Origin: Patescibacteria group bacterium | Lineage (GTDB): Bacteria > Patescibacteriota > Patescibacteriia > Patescibacteriales > JAQTRU01 | Length of the DNA stretch: 64,000 bases | Assembly: GCA_028716725.1 (NCBI GenBank) | Contig: JAQUPG010000007.1 | Coordinates: 10,205-74,204, forward strand | Direction of reading: 5' to 3' | The notes under the pieces: generated by a model | Told to the model about the DNA's origin: nothing | The model's input: only the letters and a program-made list of their open reading frames with translations | The model's database searches: none | Position numbers and translations under genes: made by a program | Shown here: in pieces, positions 4,171-45,710 of the stretch | Layout: every line of letters starts with the position of its first letter | How positions within the stretch are numbered: the first letter of the stretch is position 1

Positions 4171-4199
4171 GGGCGGTTCAAGTGCGAGCCGCCTTTTTT
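4171..4199 (+). terminator. Rho-independent terminator of the 3322 gene
   Basis: An 8-bp stem (4172-4179 / 4186-4193), a 6-nt loop, then T6 (4194-4199). Confidence 0.75.
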
Positions 4200-4327
4200 A
4201 ATCCCGCACCTTTTAGGCGATTAAATATTTTGAATTTTGAAATATTTAGTTGTTATAATTAATTATTTTGGCAGCTAGTTATTTAGGTATTTAACGTGCA
4301 AGCGTTTCGCCTAAAAGGTGCGGGATT
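4200..4327. repeat. MITE-like element, copy 1: 21-bp perfect terminal inverted repeats around an 86-nt AT-rich core
   Basis: aatcccgcaccttttaggcga (4200-4220) is the exact reverse complement of tcgcctaaaaggtgcgggatt (4307-4327). The right arm abuts or overlaps the stop codon of the HlyD-like gene. A related copy lies at 38855-38956. Confidence 0.8.
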
Positions 4328-6239
4328 AATTCCCGTCTTTTACAAAAGTTATTGCCTGATCCCCTTCTTTAACTCCGGAAAGAACTTCAACCATGCCCTC
4401 GTCCCCCTGCAGGCCGATTTTTACCGGCATCTCAATGGCTTTTTGGCCGACCAAAATTCTTGCATATTTATCTCCGCCGTTTTTTTCCACGACCGCGCGG
4501 GAAGGCATTATTAAAACATTATCTCTGAAATTAGTGGTAATAATAACATTAGCGGTCATGCCTGATTTTATCCCGGCCATTTTTGTCTCATCTTTTTCCG
4601 TAAATTGGATTTTAACCTTATAGTAAGTCACGTCCTGGATAATTGTTTCTGCCGGCTCTATTGAATAGACTTTTCCAAAAAATTTCACCCCGTCGCCAAA
4701 AGCGTCCAAAGTAATTTCGACCGGGTTGTCCTTTTTTACCTTAGTAATATCAGCTTCCGAAATATCAACTTCAATTTCGAAATTATTTTCACCCAGGATG
4801 GCTATGGCTGGTTTGGCCGCCGTTGCCTGCTCCCCTAATTCATATTCAATCCTCACAACCGTCCCGTCTATCGGCGCTTTTATAATACTATCTCCAATTT
4901 GCTCTTTTGCCAAAGCCAAAGCGGCTTCGGCTTGTTTAACCTGGGCCCGATATAAAGACACGTCCTGAATCCTGGCTGGCGATTTAAGATTTTCTAGCTG
5001 GGCTTTTGCCACCTGCCAGGCTTCCAAGCTCGTATCAACCTTTGACTGAGCGGCCGCTACCTTCTGATCCCCGGCCAGCCGGACAGACGCTAAAGAATTT
5101 TTAGCTGACTTTATGGCATTAGCCAAATCTATTTTCGCTTTAGCCAAATCATCTTCAGCTCCGGTTACTTCTGTTTGGTAGGTTAAAACCGCATCCTCTA
5201 AATTGTGCTGCGCCGTTTGAACGGCGGAAATGGCCGTGCTAATAGCCGTAATCTGAGTGCTGATTGAGGTTTTGTAAACATCTAATTCGGTTTGGGTAAA
5301 AGCGGAGGAAACAACGCTGTTTTCCAAAGCCTTATAACAATAATCAAGGGCTTCAAAAACTTTATTTAGAGCCGTCAGGCAATTTTGGCTGGCGGTGATT
5401 ACCGCCGAATTGGTTTGAGCTGTTTTAGCCGTAGCTAAGCTGTTATTGGCCGCTGTCAGCAATTCTACGCCATCGGCGTAGGAACTTACCGTACTGGGGA
5501 GATAACTTCTATTTTTAGCCTTAAGCGGTTCTTCGGCATCGCTGTCTTCTAAAATCGTATTTATATTATCAAGAGCCGTATTGGCTATCACTAATTTATT
5601 ATCAACAGTTGTTAAAGCTACGCTTCTTTTGTTGTTAATTGACTGCTCGTAGGTGCTTTTAGCATTGGCTAAGTCCGTCTCCGCTAAAGTCACGGCTTGT
5701 TCATATGAAGTAATGTCGTCCGCCTGATTTGATTCTAAATCAGCCAGACTTTTTTCCGCCTGGGAAATATCTTCGGCTGTAGTTTTTTCAATTTTATCCA
5801 GTTCCGCCAAATTGGCTAAATAAGTGGCTTTAGCCTGGTCAACCTGGGCCTGGGAAACGGCAATTTCTTTAGAGGTGGCGCCGGCCAATAATTTATTCAA
5901 ATTAGCGTTAGCCACATCCAGATTAGCCTGCGCTTCCTGCTCTTTTATGGAAAACGAATTATAATCCAGCTCGGCCAGAACTTGGCCTTCCTTTACTTTA
6001 TCGCCCATTTGCACTGATATTTTTCCGACCTTCCCGCTTTGCAAAAAGCTTAATTCAATTTCCTGGGAAGATTTAACCGTACCCACTTCGCTTACGGTCT
6101 GGGTTAATTTACCCCTGGCCACCGTCACTGTCGTATATTCCGTTTTGTTTTTTTTGCCCATAATAAAAAATACGGACAAAGCCGCAATCGCCACTAAAAG
6201 TATCACTATAATTTTTATTCTTTTCCCGGTTATTTTCAT
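4326..6239 (-). CDS. HlyD/MacA-family membrane-fusion (periplasmic adaptor) protein with an unusually long coiled coil
   Basis: N-terminal TM. Lipoyl-like segment GKVGKISVQMGDKVKEGQVLAELD. About 350 aa of Ala/Gln/Leu-rich heptad-like sequence. C-terminal beta-barrel-like region ...GTVVRIEYELGEQA... It is adjacent to the MacB-type ATPase and permeases. Confidence 0.85.
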   Translation of the reverse strand: MKITGKRIKIIVILLVAIAALSVFFIMGKKNKTEYTTVTVARGKLTQTVSEVGTVKSSQEIELSFLQSGKVGKISVQMGDKVKEGQVLAELDYNSFSIKEQEAQANLDVANANLNKLLAGATSKEIAVSQAQVDQAKATYLANLAELDKIEKTTAEDISQAEKSLADLESNQADDITSYEQAVTLAETDLANAKSTYEQSINNKRSVALTTVDNKLVIANTALDNINTILEDSDAEEPLKAKNRSYLPSTVSSYADGVELLTAANNSLATAKTAQTNSAVITASQNCLTALNKVFEALDYCYKALENSVVSSAFTQTELDVYKTSISTQITAISTAISAVQTAQHNLEDAVLTYQTEVTGAEDDLAKAKIDLANAIKSAKNSLASVRLAGDQKVAAAQSKVDTSLEAWQVAKAQLENLKSPARIQDVSLYRAQVKQAEAALALAKEQIGDSIIKAPIDGTVVRIEYELGEQATAAKPAIAILGENNFEIEVDISEADITKVKKDNPVEITLDAFGDGVKFFGKVYSIEPAETIIQDVTYYKVKIQFTEKDETKMAGIKSGMTANVIITTNFRDNVLIMPSRAVVEKNGGDKYARILVGQKAIEMPVKIGLQGDEGMVEVLSGVKEGDQAITFVKDGN

Positions 6240-6654: not shown

Positions 6655-6683
6655 ATTATAGCAATATTAAAAATATTTTTCAA
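6655..6683 (-). promoter_or_regulatory. Sigma70-like promoter of the RR-HlyD-ABC operon (near-leaderless geometry)
   Basis: On the minus strand: TTGAAA (6683-6678), 17-nt spacer, TATAAT (6660-6655). Only 6 nt (attaat) separate the -10 from the ATG at 6648. Confidence 0.55.
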
Positions 6684-6693
6684 ATTCAAGGTG

Positions 6694-6715
6694 GGGGCAA
6701 TTCGCGAATTGCCCC
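6694..6715. repeat. 22-bp perfect palindrome ggggcaattcgcgaattgcccc just upstream of the -35
   Basis: Read directly. It lies between the peptide-gene terminator and the RR promoter. Confidence 0.85.
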
Positions 6716-6734
6716 TACTTATTATTTTTTAGGT

Positions 6735-6773
6735 TTTTAAAAAATTAAAAGGGGGGTATCTGCTAGATACCCC
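6735..6773 (-). terminator. Rho-independent terminator of the small peptide gene
   Basis: ggggtatct-gct-agatacccc (6753-6773), followed on the minus strand by ccttttaatttttt. Confidence 0.8.
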
Positions 6774-6809
6774 GCTTTTGCCTTCCTTTGGAGGCATTTC
6801 TCCGCTTGA

Positions 6810-7902: not shown

Positions 7903-7923
7903 CATAACAAAATAAAAAAACAC

Positions 7924-7958
7924 TATACGATACGCGATAGGCGTTATGCGATATGTGT
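7924..7958. repeat. Degenerate heptamer array of the CGTTATG family
   Basis: tatacga tacgcga taggcgt tatgcga tatgtgt, in the spacer between rfbB and the 7086 gene. Confidence 0.6.
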
Positions 7959-7967
7959 TAAGTAATT

Positions 7968-11646: not shown

Positions 11647-12099
11647 CTACCCGATTTTATAAGGCGAATCCTCTCTATCCTCCCATCTTATTTCGTCAAC
11701 CTCTTCTTTTTTATTTTCGCCTTTATATAATTTATCCGGTAAATTAATGCTCATTCCTCCCTCTCTGGAAACGCATTTATAGCCATGCACTACCCCGGGC
11801 GGCACAATCACTAAGGCGGGGTTTGACGTCCCCGCTTCTATTTTCATATTTTCGTCTTTGGTTTTGGAGTTTTCCCGCCTATCCCAAAGATAAAGTTCAA
11901 AGTCTCCCGGCCCGACAAAAACGAACCGGTCAGACTGCTTTACGTGCTCATGCGGACCGCGGATTATACCGGGCTTGGTGAGACTTACATAACTCATTAT
12001 TGGCGAAAAACCATCTTCATCCTGCCGAAAAATTTCCGTTAGCCAGCCCCGCTCGTCCTCGTATTTTTTTAATTTTTTTATTACTACCCCCTCAATCAT
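11647..12099 (-). CDS. RmlC-like cupin (dTDP-4-dehydrorhamnose 3,5-epimerase-related)
   Basis: YEDERGWLTEIFRQ and RGPHEH..Q motifs typical of the RmlC fold. Short form (150 aa), so the exact activity is uncertain. Confidence 0.6.
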   Translation of the reverse strand: MIEGVVIKKLKKYEDERGWLTEIFRQDEDGFSPIMSYVSLTKPGIIRGPHEHVKQSDRFVFVGPGDFELYLWDRRENSKTKDENMKIEAGTSNPALVIVPPGVVHGYKCVSREGGMSINLPDKLYKGENKKEEVDEIRWEDREDSPYKIG

Positions 12100-14031: not shown

Positions 14032-15561
14032 TTTTAAAACTTTTACTATTCCCTTATTAGCATCAACCTCTACTAATTGCCCATCGCGCAACACTTGTGT
14101 TGCAATTTTCGCGCCCACGACACAAGGAATCTTTAATTCCCGCGAAATAATAGCGGCATGGCAGGTTAAGCCGCCTTCATCGGTTACGATAGCTGCGACT
14201 TTTTTCAAACCGGTAATTAAATCCGGCTTAGTTATCGGCGCGACTAAGATGTCGCCCTTTTTTATTTTACCAATATCCTTAAAACTTTTTATAATTTTGG
14301 CCCGGCCACGAGCTTTACCTAAATTAGCAACCTGACCTTTTAATTCTCTTATTTCTTTACTCAGTTTAGCCAAAAATCCTTTTTCTTTTATTACCCGTTC
14401 AGCTTCTGCCCCAGCTAAAACTATTAACTCCCCTTTTCCCGGGCAAATAAGGGATAAACTCTGACGAGATTTAATTAAAGATCTTTTAGGTAAAATGTTT
14501 TTTGCTAAAAACTTTTTTGCTTCTAGCGGAGTTAAATACCGGAAATCCCTTACCGGCCAGCCCGCCCGGGAGGCAGCTTCGGCGAACAAAGGCCTGGCTT
14601 TAAAGCTGGTATAAGAAAAAACCGCCCCCAACTCTGTTTTAATAAAAGCAAAGGTTTCTGCATATTTAATTAATTTTTTTATCTGCGCTGGGGGATTTAA
14701 TTCTTTTATTATTTTTTTCTTCTGTCTTTTTACATCTGCCAGATAATTTGAAAGAACCCTATACTTTTTATTTAATTCATTTTTATTCTTTAACCAACTT
14801 TTAATTTCCTTAATATAAAATTCTTTTGGCCAATCCGGAGAATCAAAAAAAACAGGCAGCCAGCAAAATTTTTTATGAAGCTCATTAAACTCTCTATTAA
14901 TATCTGGATCCTCCTCTCTTAACCAAGCTAAAATAACCTCAACATCTTTTTTAAAGAAAAAATCATAGATTTTTTTCCTCTTTGAAATCTTTTTGGCGAT
15001 TTTTAAAATTCCCAGTTCATTTTTAATTTCGCTACTTAGACGAACCGGCGATACCAGAATACTTAAATAAGCAGCCGCTTTACCCCGGCCATTAATTTTC
15101 TCCAACAAATACTTTTCTAAATCAGCCGCTAAAGTAAGGTCAAACATCCGGCAGAGAGATGCATAAGGATGGTGAGCAAGAAAGGCCCGGCAATAATAAT
15201 CTAAAAGCCGGGTTGATTTCTTATTGGAGGCCCCGGCTAAATCTGTTTTGCTAATTAGTTCGGCTATTTTGCAAAAATCGTTACGAATATAGAAATAATT
15301 AGAAGCCAATCTGTCCAAAAATATTCTGTCTTTCTTCGCTCGACGGCCAAATATTTCCGCTAATTGATCAAACTGACCGGAAACAAGATAGGAAGTGGCT
15401 ACCTCGTCTTTTAAAATCGAACTGTAAGTAGATGCCCCCTGGCCTATAATTTTGGGCAAGCGGTAGACATAATTATAGTTACATAGATACCAAGGAAAAA
15501 GCGTAGAAAACCTAGCCAATTGCTTCTCCCAAATTATTTTTTTTGATTTTTTGGCTTTCAT
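14029..15561 (-). CDS. PEP-utilising-enzyme mobile (phosphohistidine swivel) domain protein, paralog 1 (510 aa)
   Basis: C-terminal ...[73 protein letters not shown]. The ~380-aa Lys-rich N-terminus has no motif I recognise. Confidence 0.8.
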   Translation of the reverse strand: [510 protein letters not shown]

Positions 15562-18990: not shown

Positions 18991-19010
18991 CTTGCCTACC
19001 GGCAGGCAGG
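18991..19010. repeat. 20-bp near-palindrome cttgcctaccggcaggcagg (family copy 1)
   Basis: Read directly, 15 nt upstream of the mreC start. Relatives at 25912-25931 (perfect) and 45691-45710. Confidence 0.85.
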
Positions 19011-20612: not shown

Positions 20613-20640
20613 ACGTTATGCGTTATTCGTTATGCGTTTT
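20613..20640. repeat. Heptamer array of the CGTTATG family overlapping the proS stop codon
   Basis: cgttatg cgttatt cgttatg cgttttg. It encodes the last residues ...KRITNNA and the TAA stop of proS. Confidence 0.75.
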
Positions 20641-21869
20641 GCAACTTCACTAATTTTTACCATCTCCACTTCTTTTTTATCTCTCTTCTTCACTTCCACG
20701 CTGTCCTTAGCCAGAGTTTTCTCGCTCACTACCAGCCGATACGGGCAGCCGATTAAATCCGCTTCGGCAAATTTTTCTCCCGCGCTAATCTCATCCCGGT
20801 CGTCATATAAAACTTCAACCCCATTTTTTCTCAAATCATTATAAAGTTTTTCCGTTTCTTTTTTAACTTTTGCTTCTTTGCTTCTCACTTCAATCAGATG
20901 GACCCGGAACGGGGCGATTTCTTCCGGCCAAATCATGCCTTGCTCGTCATGGCAGACCTCTACAACCGTTCCCATCAGCCGGCTCGGTCCAAGGCCGTAG
21001 CAGCCCATAATTACGTCCTGCTTTCCTCCTTTTTCATCCATATAAGAAAAACCAAAAGGTTTGGAAAAACGGGTGCCTAGTTTAAAAATATTTCCCACTT
21101 CAACCGCCTTTTCCTCGACAAAATCTTTTTTCTTACACTGCGGGCAGACTTTTTGCTCTTCTATAATCTCTTTATTGACGGCTATTTTACACTTCTTGCA
21201 AAGATAAATGGTATCTTCCCCGGTTTTGGCTAAAGTCTGGAATTCGTGGGAATATTTGGAAAAAGTACCGCCCAAAGCATAAGTTAAATAAGTAAGGTCG
21301 CCCAGGCCGCAGCGGGAAAATATCTTAAAATAACTCTTGATTACTATTTCATAAAATTTATTAAGATCTTTCTCGTCCGCATGAAAAGAATACAAATCTT
21401 TCATGGAAAACTCCCGGCCCCTGATCAGGCCGGCTTTGGCCCGAAGTTCATTCCTGAACTTAGTCTGAATCTGGTAAACGGCGGCGGGCAGGTCTTTGTA
21501 GGAAAAAATAAATTTTTTTACCAAAGGCGTTACGACTTCCTCATGCGTCGCTCCTAATCCATACTCTTTTTTATCGCCTCCGATTAATCTGAACAAAGCG
21601 TCAAAATTTTCCCAGCGGTTGGTTGCCGCCCAGCTTTCTTTCGGGATTAAAGCCGGCATTAAAATTTCCTGCCCGCCGATGGCGTCCATCTCTTCCCTGA
21701 TGATCCGGCAGATTTTATCATGGACGAGAAGGCCTAGGGGCAAAAACGAATAAACGCCGGCCGCCAGCTTATCAATAAAGCCGGCCCGAATTAACTGCCT
21801 GGCGTTAAAACTAGTTTCGTCTTTCGGCAGCTCTTTTATGGTTTTAGTAAAAAGTTTTGATTGAAGCAT
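20616..21869 (-). CDS. proS: Prolyl-tRNA synthetase, short form lacking the INS editing domain
   Basis: The N-terminus LFTKTIKELPKDETSFNARQLIRAGFIDKLAAGVYSFLPLGL matches bacterial ProRS, with class II motifs and an anticodon-binding C-terminus. A C4 cluster (CKKC...CPQC) sits where INS would be. Confidence 0.85.
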   Translation of the reverse strand: MLQSKLFTKTIKELPKDETSFNARQLIRAGFIDKLAAGVYSFLPLGLLVHDKICRIIREEMDAIGGQEILMPALIPKESWAATNRWENFDALFRLIGGDKKEYGLGATHEEVVTPLVKKFIFSYKDLPAAVYQIQTKFRNELRAKAGLIRGREFSMKDLYSFHADEKDLNKFYEIVIKSYFKIFSRCGLGDLTYLTYALGGTFSKYSHEFQTLAKTGEDTIYLCKKCKIAVNKEIIEEQKVCPQCKKKDFVEEKAVEVGNIFKLGTRFSKPFGFSYMDEKGGKQDVIMGCYGLGPSRLMGTVVEVCHDEQGMIWPEEIAPFRVHLIEVRSKEAKVKKETEKLYNDLRKNGVEVLYDDRDEISAGEKFAEADLIGCPYRLVVSEKTLAKDSVEVKKRDKKEVEMVKISEVAKRITNNA

Positions 21870-25717: not shown

Positions 25718-25816
25718 ATGTTTTCACGAAACATGCAGTATGAAACATGTAACACTATTAATTTTCAATTTTTAATTTTTAAACAATTTTTAATTTTTAA
25801 ATTCTTAAAAGTTTTG

Positions 25817-25957
25817 AAAATCACCATGGGGTTCGGGGGCCGAACTGAGCGCCAGGGCGAGCATATCTAAAGATTAATCAACGTGATAGCGAATTGAGGC
25901 CCCCGAAACTTCCTGCCTGCCGGCAGGCAGGTTGCCTACTTTTGGTTACAAAAGTAA
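25817..25957. repeat. Structured intergenic repeat, copy A (~95-nt core plus palindrome plus hairpin tail)
   Basis: aaaatcaccatggggttcgggggccgaactgagcgccagggcgagcatatctaaagattaatc...gcgaattgaggcccccgaaactt is near-identical to 29015-29109. ttcgggggcc pairs with ggcccccgaa 60 nt away. The tail hairpin acttttg-gtta-caaaagt is shared. Confidence 0.85.
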
Positions 25958-26028
25958 GTCTTAGCGAAGCGTCTATCTCATCTACCTAATCTTATAAATA
26001 ATACAGCAATATTAGTATTATGTCAATT

Positions 26029-26910
26029 TTACCATGAACCGGAAGAACCTCCACCACCAGATCCGCCTCCGCCAAATCCGCCGAAACCGCCTCCGCCAAA
26101 TCCTCCCCCGCCCCCGCGCCCTCCGCCAATCCACCAGGGAATTGTGCCGCTGGCTTTATGTTTGGCATAGTTCTTCGAAACGATAAAATCAAACAATAGG
26201 CCAAAAGGAATTAAAATTACCAAAGAAACCAAGCCGAAAATAACAAAACCCTTTATTATTCCGATGATCACGCCGATTACTCCCCCAACAACTCCACCGG
26301 CCCACCAGGACTTGCTTCGGCCTAAGATGCTGGCCAGCCATATAACCGCGAAAAGCCCAAACCAAAAAATATTCTCCCAGGCCTGCGAACTTAGGACCTT
26401 AGCCGGTTCGCTTTCCGGAAGGTACTCGCCCTGCGTTGCCGCCATTATTTTATCAACTGCCTGGTCTATGCCTTGATAATATTTTTCCTGCCGAAAAGCC
26501 GGCTTCATTATATCGTTAATAATCCAGAAACTCTGGGCGTCGGTTAAAGCCCCTTCCAGACCATAACCTACTTCAATCCGCATTTTTCTATCTTCTTTAG
26601 CAACTAAAACTAAAATGCCGTTATCGTTTTTAGCTTTACCGATTTTCCAGTCTTCAAAAAGCCGGACGGCAAAATTTTCAATCGTATCCCCATCTAAACT
26701 CGGAATGATCACGACCGCGATTTCATTGCTTGTCTGGCTTTCAAAATTAACCAGTTTCGCTTCCAGACTCTGCCGCTGGCTCTCGCTCATCATCCCTGCA
26801 TAATCATTAACAAATCCAGCCGGCGTTCCCGGATTATAATAAGCCAAAGCCGGCATTGCCACAAACAATAACAATATAACCAATATTATCTTTTTCAATA
26901 ATTTAAACAT
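26029..26910 (-). CDS. TPM-domain protein (YgcG-like) with TM segments and a Gly-rich tail
   Basis: GFVNDYAGMMSESQRQSLEAKL...IAVVIIPSLDG...ILVLVAKEDRKMRIEVGYGLEG is the TPM signature. Confidence 0.9.
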   Translation of the reverse strand: MFKLLKKIILVILLLFVAMPALAYYNPGTPAGFVNDYAGMMSESQRQSLEAKLVNFESQTSNEIAVVIIPSLDGDTIENFAVRLFEDWKIGKAKNDNGILVLVAKEDRKMRIEVGYGLEGALTDAQSFWIINDIMKPAFRQEKYYQGIDQAVDKIMAATQGEYLPESEPAKVLSSQAWENIFWFGLFAVIWLASILGRSKSWWAGGVVGGVIGVIIGIIKGFVIFGLVSLVILIPFGLLFDFIVSKNYAKHKASGTIPWWIGGGRGGGGGFGGGGFGGFGGGGSGGGGSSGSW

Positions 26911-28988: not shown

Positions 28989-29014
28989 ATTAAAATTTTC
29001 CAATCAACTATTTT

Positions 29015-29135
29015 AAAATCACCATGGGGTTCGGGGGCCGAACTGAGCGCCAAGGCGAGCATATCCAAAGATTAATCCAGGGACTAGCGAATTGAGGCCC
29101 CCGAAACTTTTGGTTACTTTTGGTTACAAAAGTAA
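29015..29135. repeat. Structured intergenic repeat, copy B
   Basis: Same core as 25817-25911, with a few substitutions outside the 10-bp clamp. The tail has a duplicated acttttggtt before the shared hairpin. Confidence 0.85.
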
Positions 29136-29180
29136 CTCGCTGAAAGCGAAACTTTCCTGGCACCAACAACTCAAATATTT

Positions 29181-32105
29181 TTAACGTTTCTCTACGCGTA
29201 AAACAATTTCCTCTCCATTAATCTTCACCTTCTTGCCCTCACCGCCAGCGCGTATTTCATCAGCCAAAGTATCTTTCTTTATTTCTTCGCCAAATTTCTC
29301 AAAAACTTCTTTTATTTCTTTATTCTTCGTTTCGTAATAAATCACGGCTCTGTCTTGAATAGTCATCCCGGTTTCTTTGCGCAAATTATTTATCGCCCGC
29401 ACCAGTTCCCGTTTTACACCTTCTTGCACTAATTCCGGCGTCATTTTTGTATCCAGCTCAACTGTCAATTCTTTCCCTTCAACAAATTTCACTTCCTTCA
29501 CGTTTAGTTCATCTTTTATAAGTTCTCCATATTCTTTTGGTAATTCGTAATTCGTAATTCGTAATTCGCTAAGCGGTTGTCGCACTTTTATCCCGGATTG
29601 ATCCCGTTTACCTAACCCCATCTCCACAATCTTTCTCACCACTTCCATTTTCTCTAAAACCTTCTCATCAATCCATTCTTTCTTCACATCAGCCCATTCT
29701 TTAAGATGCACTGATTCAACATCTGCGCCCAATTCCTGATAAATATGTTCAGCCATAAAGGGCATAAACGGCGCCATAATCCGCGCCAAATGATACAAAG
29801 TCCGGCGCAAAATTTTTAACGCCCGCATTTTGTCAACTTCATCATCGCCTTTGAAGCGGTCTCTGGACCGGCGGACATACCAGGTTGATAAATCGTTTAT
29901 AAAAATCGGAATTTCGCGAATGGCCTGCAAATCATAATTATCCATTTTTTCCGTTACCACTTTTTTAGTCTCTTCCAAACGTGAAGTTATCCATTTATCT
30001 AGAATATTAACTAAATCTTTTTTCTCTAAATTTTCAATCTTTAAATCAGTGGCAAACATCTTATAGAAAGATAGAACATTGAGTAAAATATTAAAAAATC
30101 TGGTTTGCTCCGCCATATCTTTCTCGGAAAAATTTATGTTGTCGGCCTTCATTACCGGCGAAGCGCAAAGATAATAGCGCAAAGGATCAGCCCCGTACTT
30201 ATCCATTACTTCCATCGGGTCAGGATAATTCTTAAGCCGCTTAGACATCTTTTTTCCGTCTTCGGCCAAAACTATGCCGTTAACAATAACATTCTTAAAA
30301 GCGTGGCTTTTCTTTATTCCGGTGGCAATGGCGTGCAGATAATAAAACCAAGCCCTTGTCTGGTCAACGCCCTCGGCAATAAATTCGGCCGGAAAATTGG
30401 CTTCAAATTTTTTCTTATTCTCAAACGGATAATGCATTTGCGCGTAGGGCATTGACCCGGACTCAAACCAGCAATCTATCACATCCGGAATGCGTTTCAT
30501 AACTCCCCCGCATTTGCAGGCAAAAGTAATTTTATCTACCACATGCTTATGCAGATCCGTAATTTTTTGTTTGCTCAATTTTTCCAGTTCCTCAACCGAG
30601 CCAATCACTTTTCTTTCTCCGCAAGCACATTCCCAAATCGGAATAGCCGAAGCCCAATATCTCTGCCGCGAAATTGACCAGTCCCGCGCCCCTTCCAGCC
30701 AGTTGCCAAACCGGCCTTCTTTAATATGAGCCGGCACCCAGTTTATTTTCTTGGCCAATTTCAGCATTTTCGATTTTATTTTCGTAATCTTAACAAACCA
30801 GGAAGAAGTGGCGTAATTAAGAAGCGGGGTTTCGCAACGCCAGCAATGCGGATAGCTGTGCTCATATTTTTCCTTAGAAAATAAAAATCCCTTACCATCC
30901 AGATATTTCTTAATTTCCTCATCGGTTTTCATAACGTCCTCGGCTGGTTTAACATGTAGGCCGGCAAAATCCTTTGCTTCTTCTTTAATAATTCCGTCCA
31001 TGCCAACGTGCTGAACAAATGGTAAATTTTTCTCTTTGCCCAAATTCATATCATCCTCGCCAAAAGCCGGGGCAATATGAACTATGCCTGTTCCTTCTTC
31101 GGTTGTTACAAAATCCGCGGCATAAACTTTCCACCCGTTTTCTCTATTTCCTAATTTTTCATCAGAAGAATAATAACCAAATAATGGCCTATATTTTTTA
31201 CCGACTAAATTTTTTCCTTTTAGGGGTCTCGCTTTTTTAGTATAATCTTTTTCTGCAATTTCGGGATAAAATTTTAATGTATCTTGCACTCTATCTAAAG
31301 CTAAGATGTAAGATTCTCCACTCTTTTCTTCTCTAATTTTTATATAGTTAATATCTTCGCCCACTGCCAAAGCAACATTACCAATCAAAGTCCATGGGGT
31401 GGTAGTCCATGCCAAAAGATATGTTCCCGGTTCGTCTTCCAGTTCAAACTTAACGGTCACGGATAAATCTTTAACTATCTTATACCCTTCCGCCACTTCT
31501 GATTGCGATAAAGTGGTTTCGCATCTGGGGCAGATATGCATTGACCGATAATCTTTATAAATCAACTCCTTATCCCAAAGCTCTTTAAACACCCACCAAA
31601 CAGACTCCATATAATCTAAGTCCATGGTCTTATAAGCGTTTTCCATATCCACCCACCGGCCCATTCTTCTTACGGTTTTCTCCCATTCTTTGGCATAAAC
31701 CAAAACTTTGCTTCGGCATTGTTCGTTAAATTTTTCCACCCCGATTTCTTCAATATCTTTCTTGCTTTTAGTCTTCATCTCCTTTTCCACGATATTTTCA
31801 ATCGGCAAGCCATGGCAGTCCCAACCCCATCTGCGCTCTATCCGATAGCCCTTCATCGTCCAGTACCGCGGCACAATATCTTTCATTAAACTAGCCACAA
31901 TATGCCCATAATGCGGCGTACCGGTCGCAAACGGCGGCCCGTCATAGAAAACATAATCCTTTCTACCCCCTTGAAAAAGGGGGCTAGGGGGATTATTTAC
32001 GGATTTTTCAAAAATTTTATTTTTCTCCCAAAAATTCAAAACCTCCTCTTCCATAGCCGGCCAGGAGCTCTTTCTATCTATATTTTTATCCTTTTCTTTC
32101 ACCAT
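29181..32105 (-). CDS. ileS: Isoleucyl-tRNA synthetase
   Basis: HIGH motif PHYGH, KMSKS motif KMSKRL, CP1 editing region, 974 aa. Confidence 0.95.
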   Translation of the reverse strand: MVKEKDKNIDRKSSWPAMEEEVLNFWEKNKIFEKSVNNPPSPLFQGGRKDYVFYDGPPFATGTPHYGHIVASLMKDIVPRYWTMKGYRIERRWGWDCHGLPIENIVEKEMKTKSKKDIEEIGVEKFNEQCRSKVLVYAKEWEKTVRRMGRWVDMENAYKTMDLDYMESVWWVFKELWDKELIYKDYRSMHICPRCETTLSQSEVAEGYKIVKDLSVTVKFELEDEPGTYLLAWTTTPWTLIGNVALAVGEDINYIKIREEKSGESYILALDRVQDTLKFYPEIAEKDYTKKARPLKGKNLVGKKYRPLFGYYSSDEKLGNRENGWKVYAADFVTTEEGTGIVHIAPAFGEDDMNLGKEKNLPFVQHVGMDGIIKEEAKDFAGLHVKPAEDVMKTDEEIKKYLDGKGFLFSKEKYEHSYPHCWRCETPLLNYATSSWFVKITKIKSKMLKLAKKINWVPAHIKEGRFGNWLEGARDWSISRQRYWASAIPIWECACGERKVIGSVEELEKLSKQKITDLHKHVVDKITFACKCGGVMKRIPDVIDCWFESGSMPYAQMHYPFENKKKFEANFPAEFIAEGVDQTRAWFYYLHAIATGIKKSHAFKNVIVNGIVLAEDGKKMSKRLKNYPDPMEVMDKYGADPLRYYLCASPVMKADNINFSEKDMAEQTRFFNILLNVLSFYKMFATDLKIENLEKKDLVNILDKWITSRLEETKKVVTEKMDNYDLQAIREIPIFINDLSTWYVRRSRDRFKGDDEVDKMRALKILRRTLYHLARIMAPFMPFMAEHIYQELGADVESVHLKEWADVKKEWIDEKVLEKMEVVRKIVEMGLGKRDQSGIKVRQPLSELRITNYELPKEYGELIKDELNVKEVKFVEGKELTVELDTKMTPELVQEGVKRELVRAINNLRKETGMTIQDRAVIYYETKNKEIKEVFEKFGEEIKKDTLADEIRAGGEGKKVKINGEEIVLRVEKR
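29542..29569. repeat. In-frame heptamer array (TAATTCG)x4 inside ileS
   Basis: Read directly. It encodes ...SELRITNYELPKEY... on the minus strand. Confidence 0.9.
31966..31983. repeat. Perfect G+C-rich hairpin embedded in-frame near the ileS 5' end
   Basis: ccccctt-gaaa-aaggggg, followed by ctaggggg. It encodes part of NNPPSPLFQGGRKD just upstream of the HIGH region. Confidence 0.85.
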
Positions 32106-45690: not shown

Positions 45691-45710
45691 CCTGCCTACC
45701 GGCAGGCAGG
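45691..45710. repeat. 20-bp near-palindrome cctgcctaccggcaggcagg (family copy 3), abutting a TATAAT
   Basis: Read directly. It is followed immediately by tataat and lies 21 nt upstream of the sugar-transferase ATG. Confidence 0.85.

Follow-up and report, generated by a model that had tools for sequence, protein, structure and literature searches.

The window examined here, a 64-kb stretch of a Patescibacteria contig (JAQUPG010000007.1; position 1 is its first letter), holds two copies of a structured intergenic repeat, designated A and B and described on window coordinates. Both lie among minus-strand genes encoding Peptidase U32, a NIF3-like protein, TPM, LemA, a PP-loop ATPase, DUF3850 and IleS. 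As an initial annotation of the sequence had it, copy A is flanked by the TPM and NIF3-like genes and copy B by IleS and DUF3850, all on the minus strand. Homologues of the IleS protein place the organism among the Patescibacteria, close to the Falkowbacteria. The element represents a previously undescribed family of modular, RNA-structured intergenic repeats of ~155 nt, found in a narrow clade of Patescibacteria near the Falkowbacteria.

The two copies (25813-25911 and 29011-29109) are 92% identical across 99 nt and form direct repeats in the same orientation, 3,198 bp apart. The window contains exactly two occurrences of the 18-mer GGGGTTCGGGGGCCGAAC, where 0.06 would be expected. A near-identical intergenic repeat in two copies had been noted at the outset and is real, as is its 10-bp G+C clamp: the arm TTCGGGGGCC is followed 56 nt downstream, in both copies, by its exact complement GGCCCCCGAA, and all differences between A and B lie outside the clamp. 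The small hairpin said to follow both copies, TACTTTTGGTTACAAAAGTA, was located at 25937-25956 and 29115-29134 (0.01 expected), and the 20-bp palindrome ascribed to copy A only is an insertion relative to copy B. The length of ~95 nt first given to the unit did not hold. The 99-nt repeat is the core of a conserved unit of ~155 nt (copy A, 25817-25973; copy B, 29015-29149), which extends from the AAAATCACC motif through the hairpin to the GCGAAGCG motif. The G+C content of the element is 48-52%, compared with ~30% in typical spacers, and its fold energy is better than that of shuffled sequences on either strand (z of about -3).

Read 5' to 3' on the minus strand, the element comprises a module M1, a hairpin hp2, a linker, a rod formed by helices P1 and P2 that holds a third helix, P3, and a joiner, and a tail (Table 1). 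M1 is GACGCUUCGCUAGGA on the minus strand. Across the family hp2 is an AU-rich stem of 10-12 bp with a UAAC loop, connected to P1 by an A-rich linker, CAAAAAG. The rod, ~76 nt long, is closed by the P1 clamp and continued by P2 (AAUU/AGUU and CGCU/GGCG, with a CUC bulge), and encloses P3, a 4-bp hairpin, and a U-rich joiner of 22 nt for which a consistent fold was looked for and none found. The tail reads CCCC-WUGGUGAUUUU, with CCCC-UGGUGAUUUU conserved. Three types of P3 occur: AUCA-CGU-UGAU (copy A), AUCG-CNU-CGAU and A(G/A)UC-NNNN-GAUU (copy B). The clustered differences between A and B, a 'variable patch', are non-random and correspond to the 5' arm and loop of P3, which differ between subfamilies.

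Table 1. Features of copies A and B and of the adjoining NIF3 leader, in window coordinates
Feature	Position	Strand	Description
Copy A 3' tail	25817-25831	minus	CCCCAUGGUGAUUUU (plus strand: AAAATCACCATGGGG); conserved end, at a fixed distance from P1 in most family members
Copy A rod	25832-25907	minus	P1 arms 25832-25841 and 25898-25907; P2 strands 25842-25854 and 25888-25895
Copy A P3	25877-25887	minus	small hairpin including the 'variable patch'
Copy A joiner	25855-25876	minus	U-rich
Palindrome in copy A linker	25912-25931		CCTGCCTGCCGGCAGGCAGG; separate repeat family, absent from copy B and all homologues
Copy A hp2	25935-25958	minus	10-bp AU-rich stem, UAAC loop
Copy A M1 (5' module)	25959-25973	minus	GACGCUUCGCUAAGA; sequence conserved, weakly structured
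Sigma-70-like promoter	25998-26026	minus	TTGACA-17-TATTAT; begins 3 nt past the TPM stop, directed into copy A and on towards the NIF3-like gene
Remainder of NIF3 leader	25718-25816	minus	AT-rich, downstream of copy A; 18-nt tandem repeat and CATGTTTC repeats
Copy B 3' tail	29015-29029	minus	CCCCAUGGUGAUUUU
Copy B rod	29030-29105	minus	P1 arms 29030-29039 and 29096-29105; P2 strands 29040-29052 and 29086-29093
Copy B P3	29074-29085	minus	AGUC-CCUG-GAUU type, common to L016 and L020
Copy B hp2	29113-29136	minus	GUUACUUUUG-UAAC-CAAAAGUAAC; outer pair G-C, compared with C-G in copy A
Copy B M1 equivalent	29137-29149	minus	small hairpin UCGCU-UUC-AGCGA, ~30 nt after the IleS stop

Twelve further full copies were identified in uncultured Patescibacteria by pattern and covariance-model searches (loci in relatives carry L numbers). 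A pattern scan based on the clamp and covering one genome per species returned one true match, in the Patescibacteria metagenome-assembled genome L009, together with three chance matches in G+C-rich genomes. Metagenome contigs were scanned with two interior segments as the pattern and the clamp left free, which yielded eight true homologues (L013, L015-L018 and L020-L022) and two chance matches. A covariance model, R1, was built on these homologues and run on contigs fetched around IleS and ArgRS homologues. It located the element at the site orthologous to copy A in L023 and L024, a badly rearranged version in L026, and three full, mutually diverged copies within 22 kb of one contig, L032, which includes L017. 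The element was not found by the model search of the fetched contigs in L025, L027, L028-L031 or L034-L037. In viral, phage and plasmid collections a 16-mer gave chance matches only, in G+C-rich viral contigs, and patterns for the interior and hairpin gave no match; blastn against phages and plasmids was likewise without a match.

The initial annotation did not recognise the element as any known riboswitch, SRP RNA, tmRNA, 6S RNA or RNase P. This is borne out by Rfam 15, of which no family, self-cleaving ribozymes included, matched the window at gathering thresholds. At E<=10 only noise of 10-22 bits was returned across both copies, with no T-box or riboswitch, and a scan of nine homologous loci detected tRNAs only. 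ARAGORN predicted no tRNA or tmRNA in the window, and limited searching of the literature for the sequence and for RNA motifs of the Candidate Phyla Radiation (CPR) produced nothing relevant. By eye, none of a C/D-box or kink-turn, a hammerhead core, domain IV of the signal recognition particle RNA, parS, a DnaA box or an attC core fits the element. A small open reading frame was also rejected: the frames opened by the ATG in the tail are inconsistent in length, L009, L015 and L022 do not have this ATG, and no frame is common to the copies.

The main covariation alignment consisted of 14 full copies fitted to the structure model, and thereby leans towards structure; 95.3% of its cells pair over the 33 proposed pairs. 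Changes on both sides were observed in 11 of these 33 pairs, compared with 6.1 +/- 1.4 in shuffled alignments, none of 500 of which reached 11, and controls with slid partners paired in only 32-57% of cells. A plain MAFFT alignment of 12 copies gave 94.3% paired cells and nine pairs with double changes. Compensatory changes affect half of P1 (5/10 pairs), where the variants CC:GG, UC:GA, UUC:GAA, UCU:AGA and UU:AA are found and the eighth pair alternates between C-G and U-A. They also affect 4 of the 11 pairs in hp2, in which 98.5% of cells are paired over the 14 copies, and P3 displays changes from A-U to G-C. P2 is invariant among the pattern-selected copies since the search pattern fixed those segments; the copies L017b and L032c, which were found by the model, carry compensated versions, AAUUGGC/GCCAAUU. 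The three diverged paralogues in L032 each keep P1 through different compensated pairs. The fold of the element is conserved by compensatory change, in support of the structured element proposed in the initial annotation, and an alignment of the copies reveals preserved structure in the homologues and not the random decay that had been considered as an outcome. A second, mutually exclusive hairpin (gttcgg-ggg-ccgaac) had also been put forward. It can form in A and B, but in an alignment inspected by eye it is mismatched and uncompensated in relatives, for example L018, L020 and L021.

Between the window and L023, the spacer separating TPM from NIF3 is 90.3% identical, compared with 62-72% at third codon positions and 70% in the spacer between LemA and TPM; therefore the element and the rest of the NIF3 leader are under purifying selection at this orthologous site. 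Within the ~100-nt core of the element the two differ by one substitution and a changed junction. As a separate observation, positions 25718-25812 of the NIF3 leader are nearly identical in L023 despite saturated silent sites. An 18-nt sequence, CAATTTTTAATTTTTAAA, stands there in two tandem units, and CATGTTTC occurs twice immediately ahead of the start codon; this suggests a second conserved regulatory feature.

The sites are not occupied uniformly among relatives. In L027, the closest relative (82% IleS identity), the site of copy B is a 24-nt spacer, and it is empty also in L023, L025, L026 and L031; copy B is a lineage-specific insertion. The copy A site is empty in L025, which carries no element at either site, and the junction between TyrRS and ArgRS is filled in L020 and empty in L034. 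The interior of the L026 copy is replaced by G+C hairpins, and half of hp2 in L023 is replaced by the palindrome TCCCGCCTAGGCGGGA. Because it is absent from both sites in L025 and disrupted in L026 and L023, the element is dispensable.

Such differences among close relatives, and the recent insertion of copy B, would be in keeping with selfish, non-autonomous mobile DNA, either a miniature inverted-repeat transposable element (MITE) or a REP/PATE-type unit that a Y1 transposase would mobilise on single-stranded DNA. In that case the hairpins would serve as recognition structures in the DNA, and the orientation bias described below would reflect the replication strand. Clustering and nesting with another repeat family and an internally deleted copy in L017 point the same way, the strand-asymmetric G-T pairing also fits folding of single-stranded DNA, and a possible imperfect direct repeat of 9-10 nt, AGTTGTTGG / AGTTGATTGG, flanks copy B, with a rough chance of ~0.05. 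However, the termini AAAATCACC... and ...GCGAAGCGTC are not inverted repeats, for which reason a strict MITE was rejected, and the inverted repeat formed by P1 is internal. By eye, no convincing or consistent target-site duplication was seen at the other copies, and among the genes examined beside the copies the only transposase was a transposase-like open reading frame near L021, likewise assigned by eye. Decaying copies would not be expected to be still 90% conserved at an orthologous site over a distance that has almost saturated silent sites, nor, as old paralogues, to keep their helices by compensatory change. A selfish origin of this kind is considered unlikely.

That A and B are direct repeats left by the integration or duplication of the intervening 3.2-kb segment, as att-like scars, is extremely improbable. 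The presence of two direct copies in the same orientation would fit, but this origin is contradicted by relatives in which one or both copies are missing and the order of DUF3850, the PP-loop ATPase, LemA and TPM is unchanged. Single homologous elements also turn up in unrelated surroundings, and no recombinase is encoded nearby in the window. An integron attC or att site was rejected on similar grounds: the arms GTTCGGGGGCC...GGCCCCCGAAAC do not fit core sites of the form RYYYAAC...GTTRRRY, and the intervening genes are housekeeping genes that are syntenic in relatives.

The family has a mosaic build. Outside P3, the rods of A and B differ by two substitutions only. The copies also differ in M1 and in the closing pair of hp2, where copy B is like L017b and L021, and the P3 of copy B resembles that of L016. 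Such a mosaic suggests that paralogues exchanged sequence by gene conversion and did not simply arise by recent copying. In L032 the module formed by M1, an hp2-like hairpin and the linker also heads a second repeat family, F2, of ~200 nt. The element and F2 cluster together in L017 and L032, and in the internally deleted element of L017 the two ends are joined. F2 occurs at 11717-11827, 14557-14654 and 19336-19530 of L032 and at 1187-1400 of L017, and is absent from the window. Its head (M1, hairpin and CAAAAAG) is followed by TCGCTCGCTGGAGAAAATTTAGGGAATTT...AAAAATTCCACTAAATTTTCTAGGCTCGC, and it often stands right after stop codons, adjoining copies of the element.

Several simple palindromes were also recorded. 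A family of 20-bp G+C palindromes, CCTGCCTRCCGGCAGGCAGG, lies in spacers at 18991-19010, 25912-25931 (inside copy A) and 45691-45710, and other G+C palindromes have invaded the orthologous elements of L023 and L026; these look like small mobile or terminator-type hairpins. A covariance-model search of the window with filters off found no third copy of the element and only a weak match at 6674-6776, which was rejected as a full copy and is a simple palindrome. The palindrome itself (6690-6711) is a perfect 22-nt sequence, GGGGCAATTCGCGAATTGCCCC, that resembles a collapsed rod of P1 and P2 (GGGGGCC-UC-AAUUCGC...) and is followed by sequence faintly like the tail of the element (model score 19.5 bits). 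It could be a deleted derivative or an ancestral simple hairpin.

The element had first been described on the plus strand. The minus, gene-sense strand is favoured because of its G-U pairs, the orientation of neighbouring genes, a conserved promoter upstream of copy A and terminators downstream of other copies, and it is likely to be the strand that is transcribed and folded. G-U cells number 30 in the minus sense and 3 in the plus sense (7 versus 2 when only the variable helices are counted). In 12-13 of 15 copies a neighbouring gene runs in the same direction as the minus-sense form, and for the other two only one neighbour is known. The promoter before copy A matches 11 of 12 consensus positions and is retained in L023 and L026. 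A TTGACA-17-TATAAT sequence was read directly before the NIF3 leader in L025, where the element is missing. Canonical terminator hairpins, likewise read from the sequences, follow the minus-sense element in L017b and L018. Scores of held-out copies did not separate the strands, as plus- and minus-sense models performed equally.

Promoter-like sites on the minus strand were present at some loci only, and no consistent promoter or terminator of the element's own was found. Copy B starts ~30 nt after the IleS stop and ends 27 nt before the DUF3850 start, so that there is no room for a promoter. The possibility that the rod is an intrinsic terminator was rejected: a scan found none in it on the minus strand, where ~11 nt separate P1 from the U-run. 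Most likely the element is read as RNA together with the neighbouring genes, and we infer that it works as RNA within host transcripts.

All copies are intergenic. Besides TPM/NIF3 and IleS/DUF3850, the flanking pairs are ParB/glycosyltransferase, CysRS/terminator, UvrA/repeats, TyrRS/ArgRS, MurI/ArgRS and tRNA-Arg(GCG)/RecG, and one locus has a promoter-like site upstream and tRNA-Arg(UCU) twice downstream. Where data exist, a co-directional gene always begins within ~160 nt downstream. Together with a conserved core bearing a variable peripheral hairpin, the position of copy A between a conserved promoter and its gene, and the two copies that precede ArgRS, this could be taken to indicate a cis-regulatory leader (a riboswitch, a T-box-like element or a protein-binding attenuator) acting on the downstream gene. 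P1 would then alternate with a small hairpin, upstream of the U-run, in which the 3' arm of P1 pairs with UGG in the tail, and the tail UGGU is complementary to the ACCA end of neighbouring tRNA-Arg genes. Yet the downstream genes (NIF3, DUF3850, glycosyltransferase, ArgRS twice, RecG and tRNA-Arg) have no common theme, some copies are followed only by terminators, and orthologous genes do without the element in L025 and L034-L036. The competing hairpin, which precedes GAUUUU, has 3-5 bp against the 10 bp of the G+C clamp, and shows no covariation. No T-box or riboswitch was matched in Rfam even at relaxed thresholds, and P3 has no fixed position for an Arg codon. A leader function is accordingly quite improbable.

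A T-box proper was rejected. UGGU-ACCA pairing is possible and some P3 loops contain Arg codons, but their position is not fixed, copy B and L016 have none, and there is neither T-box architecture nor an Rfam signal. A role of GGUGAU resembling a Shine-Dalgarno sequence was rejected as well: most genes have no Shine-Dalgarno sequence, and the distance to start codons is 14-28 nt or more.

The explanation that we hold as best, and hold tentatively, is that the copies are mosaic RNA-structured intergenic repeats, co-transcribed with their host genes, which by analogy with reports on REP/BIME, ERIC and Correia repeats may serve in cis in the processing or stability of mRNA. As a rule the element would lack a promoter of its own and be carried on the transcripts of host genes: the 5' leader of the NIF3-like mRNA would contain copy A, the stretch between IleS and DUF3850 copy B, and 3' untranslated regions and tRNA-Arg operons other copies. 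Copies are gained and lost from time to time and can undergo patching through gene conversion. The folded RNA would act in cis as punctuation between parts of a transcript: its stable hairpins may provide exonuclease-resistant ends or a site for double-strand-specific (RNase III-type) processing, and the fates of the upstream and downstream parts would be uncoupled. The bias towards the sense orientation, gain and loss, and patchwise homogenisation are established here. Of the identities first suggested for the repeat, namely a small RNA (sRNA), a REP- or MITE-type element and a structured terminator-insulator, a co-transcribed repeat of REP type or an sRNA fits the evidence, and a strict MITE and a canonical terminator do not.

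Several points weigh against this explanation. The role in processing or stability is drawn from analogy only. The copy number is low (two in 64 kb with filters off, and none in 15-23 kb of several relatives), unlike that of classical REP or ERIC repeats. Across species the unpaired nucleotides are very strongly conserved, as would sooner be expected of an RNA that binds a specific protein or ligand than of a generic hairpin. Of about 13 loci, moreover, four are linked to arginine (the element precedes ArgRS at two and adjoins tRNA-Arg genes at two), which generic punctuation does not explain. With regard to the strand, the two G-U pairs that dominate the argument lie in segments fixed by the metagenome search pattern. 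In addition, a -10-like TAAAAT box on the plus strand lies at a fixed distance of 6-7 nt before GGGG in nearly all copies, and in every copy a U-rich tract comes immediately after P1 on that strand.

The last two features could belong to a plus-strand unit, in which TAAAAT would act as a -10 box and the rod with ACUUUUUG as a terminator. The product would be a hairpin RNA of ~85 nt antisense to host transcripts, or the unit would terminate antisense transcription. Copy B also has a promoter-like site on its plus strand that agrees with the consensus at 9 of 12 positions. In no copy, though, is the TAAAAT box joined by a -35 box, the G-U pairs favour the other strand, and the conserved hp2 and M1 beyond the supposed terminator would be left unexplained. 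The orientation would be antisense to the neighbours almost always, and use of the sense strand fits better. A canonical terminator on the plus strand was rejected since, although the U-rich tract follows P1, the 'loop' would be 56 nt long. We therefore judge a plus-strand unit to be distinctly unlikely.

The conservation of unpaired nucleotides, the purifying selection on the element and the arginine-related loci bear on the main alternative, a portable family of sRNA genes. According to this alternative, a minus-sense RNA of ~150 nt would be cut from host transcripts (untranslated regions of mRNAs and tRNA-Arg precursors) and act in trans; its scaffold would be conserved, P3 and the joiner would confer specificity, and it may be tied to tRNA-Arg or ArgRS. 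The scaffolds of A and B are identical while their P3 subfamilies differ, that of B being like those of the otherwise distant L016 and L020, which looks like paralogues of differing specificity kept alike by gene conversion. In L017b and L018 the terminators stand directly after the element. Against it are the lack of a consistent promoter or terminator, absence from close relatives at both sites and the bad rearrangement in L026, which mark the element as dispensable, a copy number that varies from none to at least three per 22 kb, and the fact that no target or partner was identified. An sRNA family is a possibility that we rate as somewhat unlikely.

The association with arginine was found at L013, where the element lies 29 nt upstream of tRNA-Arg genes and behind its own promoter-like site, at L022, where it lies 140 nt after tRNA-Arg, and at L020 and L032, where it is just upstream of ArgRS; the ArgRS loci L034, L035 and L036 carry no element. 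Four of about 13 loci touch an aminoacyl-tRNA synthetase gene. The number of arginine and synthetase neighbours exceeds a rough chance estimate in a test that was made post hoc. It is conceivable, if doubtful, that the element is a new class of functional RNA, ~150 nt long, that host transcripts would release. Its scaffold would be genome-specific and gene conversion would keep it uniform, its specificity would reside in the exchangeable P3 and joiner, and it would be tied to arginine decoding, possibly as a regulator that binds tRNA-Arg or ArgRS. Beside the element in L013 (2405-2965) and L022 (1300-1480), tRNA-like fragments accompany the tRNA-Arg genes. Among them are 5' pieces (GCCCATAGTT) and a copy whose D and T regions carry insertions, and they could be decayed duplicates or interrupted tRNA genes.

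Other features of the window were noted in passing. Only a handful of its 48 gene starts have a GGAGG-type Shine-Dalgarno sequence and most are preceded by plain AT-rich sequence, so the organism seems to rely mainly on initiation that is independent of Shine-Dalgarno pairing. Perfect or near-perfect 7-nt tandem repeats (CGTTATG x6.3 and x4.1) occupy spacers just upstream of gene starts at 465-508, 20614-20642 and 7914-7967, and a GTAATTC x4.1 repeat lies inside the IleS coding region at 29540-29568; relatives have similar repeats of 7-8 nt in the spacer between IleS and DUF3850, for example GGATTCTT in L025. A perfect 23-bp inverted repeat, TTAATCCCGCACCTTTTAGGCGA (4198-4220 and 4307-4329), lies between two convergent or adjacent genes and surrounds an AT-rich stretch of 86 nt in which TTGTTATAAT occurs; it may fold into a long hairpin or bracket a promoter. 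The 3' end of the TPM gene (26040-26135, minus strand) encodes a long Gly-rich tail of low complexity with four units of a degenerate 15-nt repeat, CCAAATCCGCCTCCG, and the TPM orthologue of L025 is 21 residues shorter.

CPR genomes are reduced and their spacers short, and a non-coding element of 155 nt that is kept at ~90-95% identity while silent sites are nearly saturated must therefore pay its way. Within the limited literature searching carried out, no described non-coding RNA or intergenic repeat of Patescibacteria resembles it. The structure, supported as it is by covariation, and the two working covariance models offer a means of surveying CPR genomes for the family, of marking transcript boundaries and of testing the processing and stabilisation of polycistronic RNA in these organisms. 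If the arginine link were true in a full census, it would point to a new riboregulator.

REP sequences and their BIME arrangements are extragenic and transcribed, often lie just after stop codons, and have reported roles in mRNA stabilisation and attenuation; REP units are simple palindromes of ~35-40 nt, present in hundreds of copies and linked to RAYT transposases. The element is like them in being extragenic and co-oriented with genes, in its RNA hairpins, in mosaic motifs that recombine and cluster (L032) and in its orientation bias. It differs in its size of ~155 nt, its 76-nt rod with conserved unpaired sequence and its low copy number (2 per 64 kb), and has no sequence similarity to them; no RAYT was seen, though no search was aimed at one. 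ERIC and Correia-type repeats are long stem-loops for which cleavage by RNase III or RNase E and altered stability of the flanking mRNA have been reported. With these and the related ERIC/IRU, Correia (CREE), RUP and BOX families, the element shares a similar size (100-150 nt in those families), an intergenic and co-transcribed position, long imperfect stem-loops and variable presence, among strains in those families and among orthologous sites here. The ends of those repeats are inverted copies of each other, and a TA or a short duplication of the target usually goes with them, whereas in the element the inverted repeat, P1, is internal and the termini are unrelated. In addition, the element is conserved at an orthologous site far more than neutrality would predict.

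Orphan structured RNA motifs of the kind collected in Rfam are similar to the element as G+C-rich islands in AT-rich spacers, with several helices, covariation, invariant junction nucleotides and a narrow phylogenetic range. In contrast to most cis-regulatory motifs, the element has an incoherent set of associated genes and undergoes repeat-like gain, loss and duplication, and no Rfam 15 model matches it. OmrA and OmrB are paralogous sRNAs with conserved ends and a divergent centre. The likeness lies in two nearby copies on the same strand with near-identical scaffolds and a short differing block that is found in distant relatives and, because it is common to them, is not random; unlike OmrA and OmrB, the element has no promoter or terminator of its own or known target, and its copies are dispensable in close relatives. 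With no terminal inverted repeats, no clear target duplication, a low copy number and no sequence similarity, it is not a member of REP/BIME, ERIC or Correia. The closest known kind is nevertheless the small structured intergenic repeat, with REP/BIME closest in mosaic build and in a transcribed, extragenic position and ERIC/Correia closest in size and stem-loop architecture.

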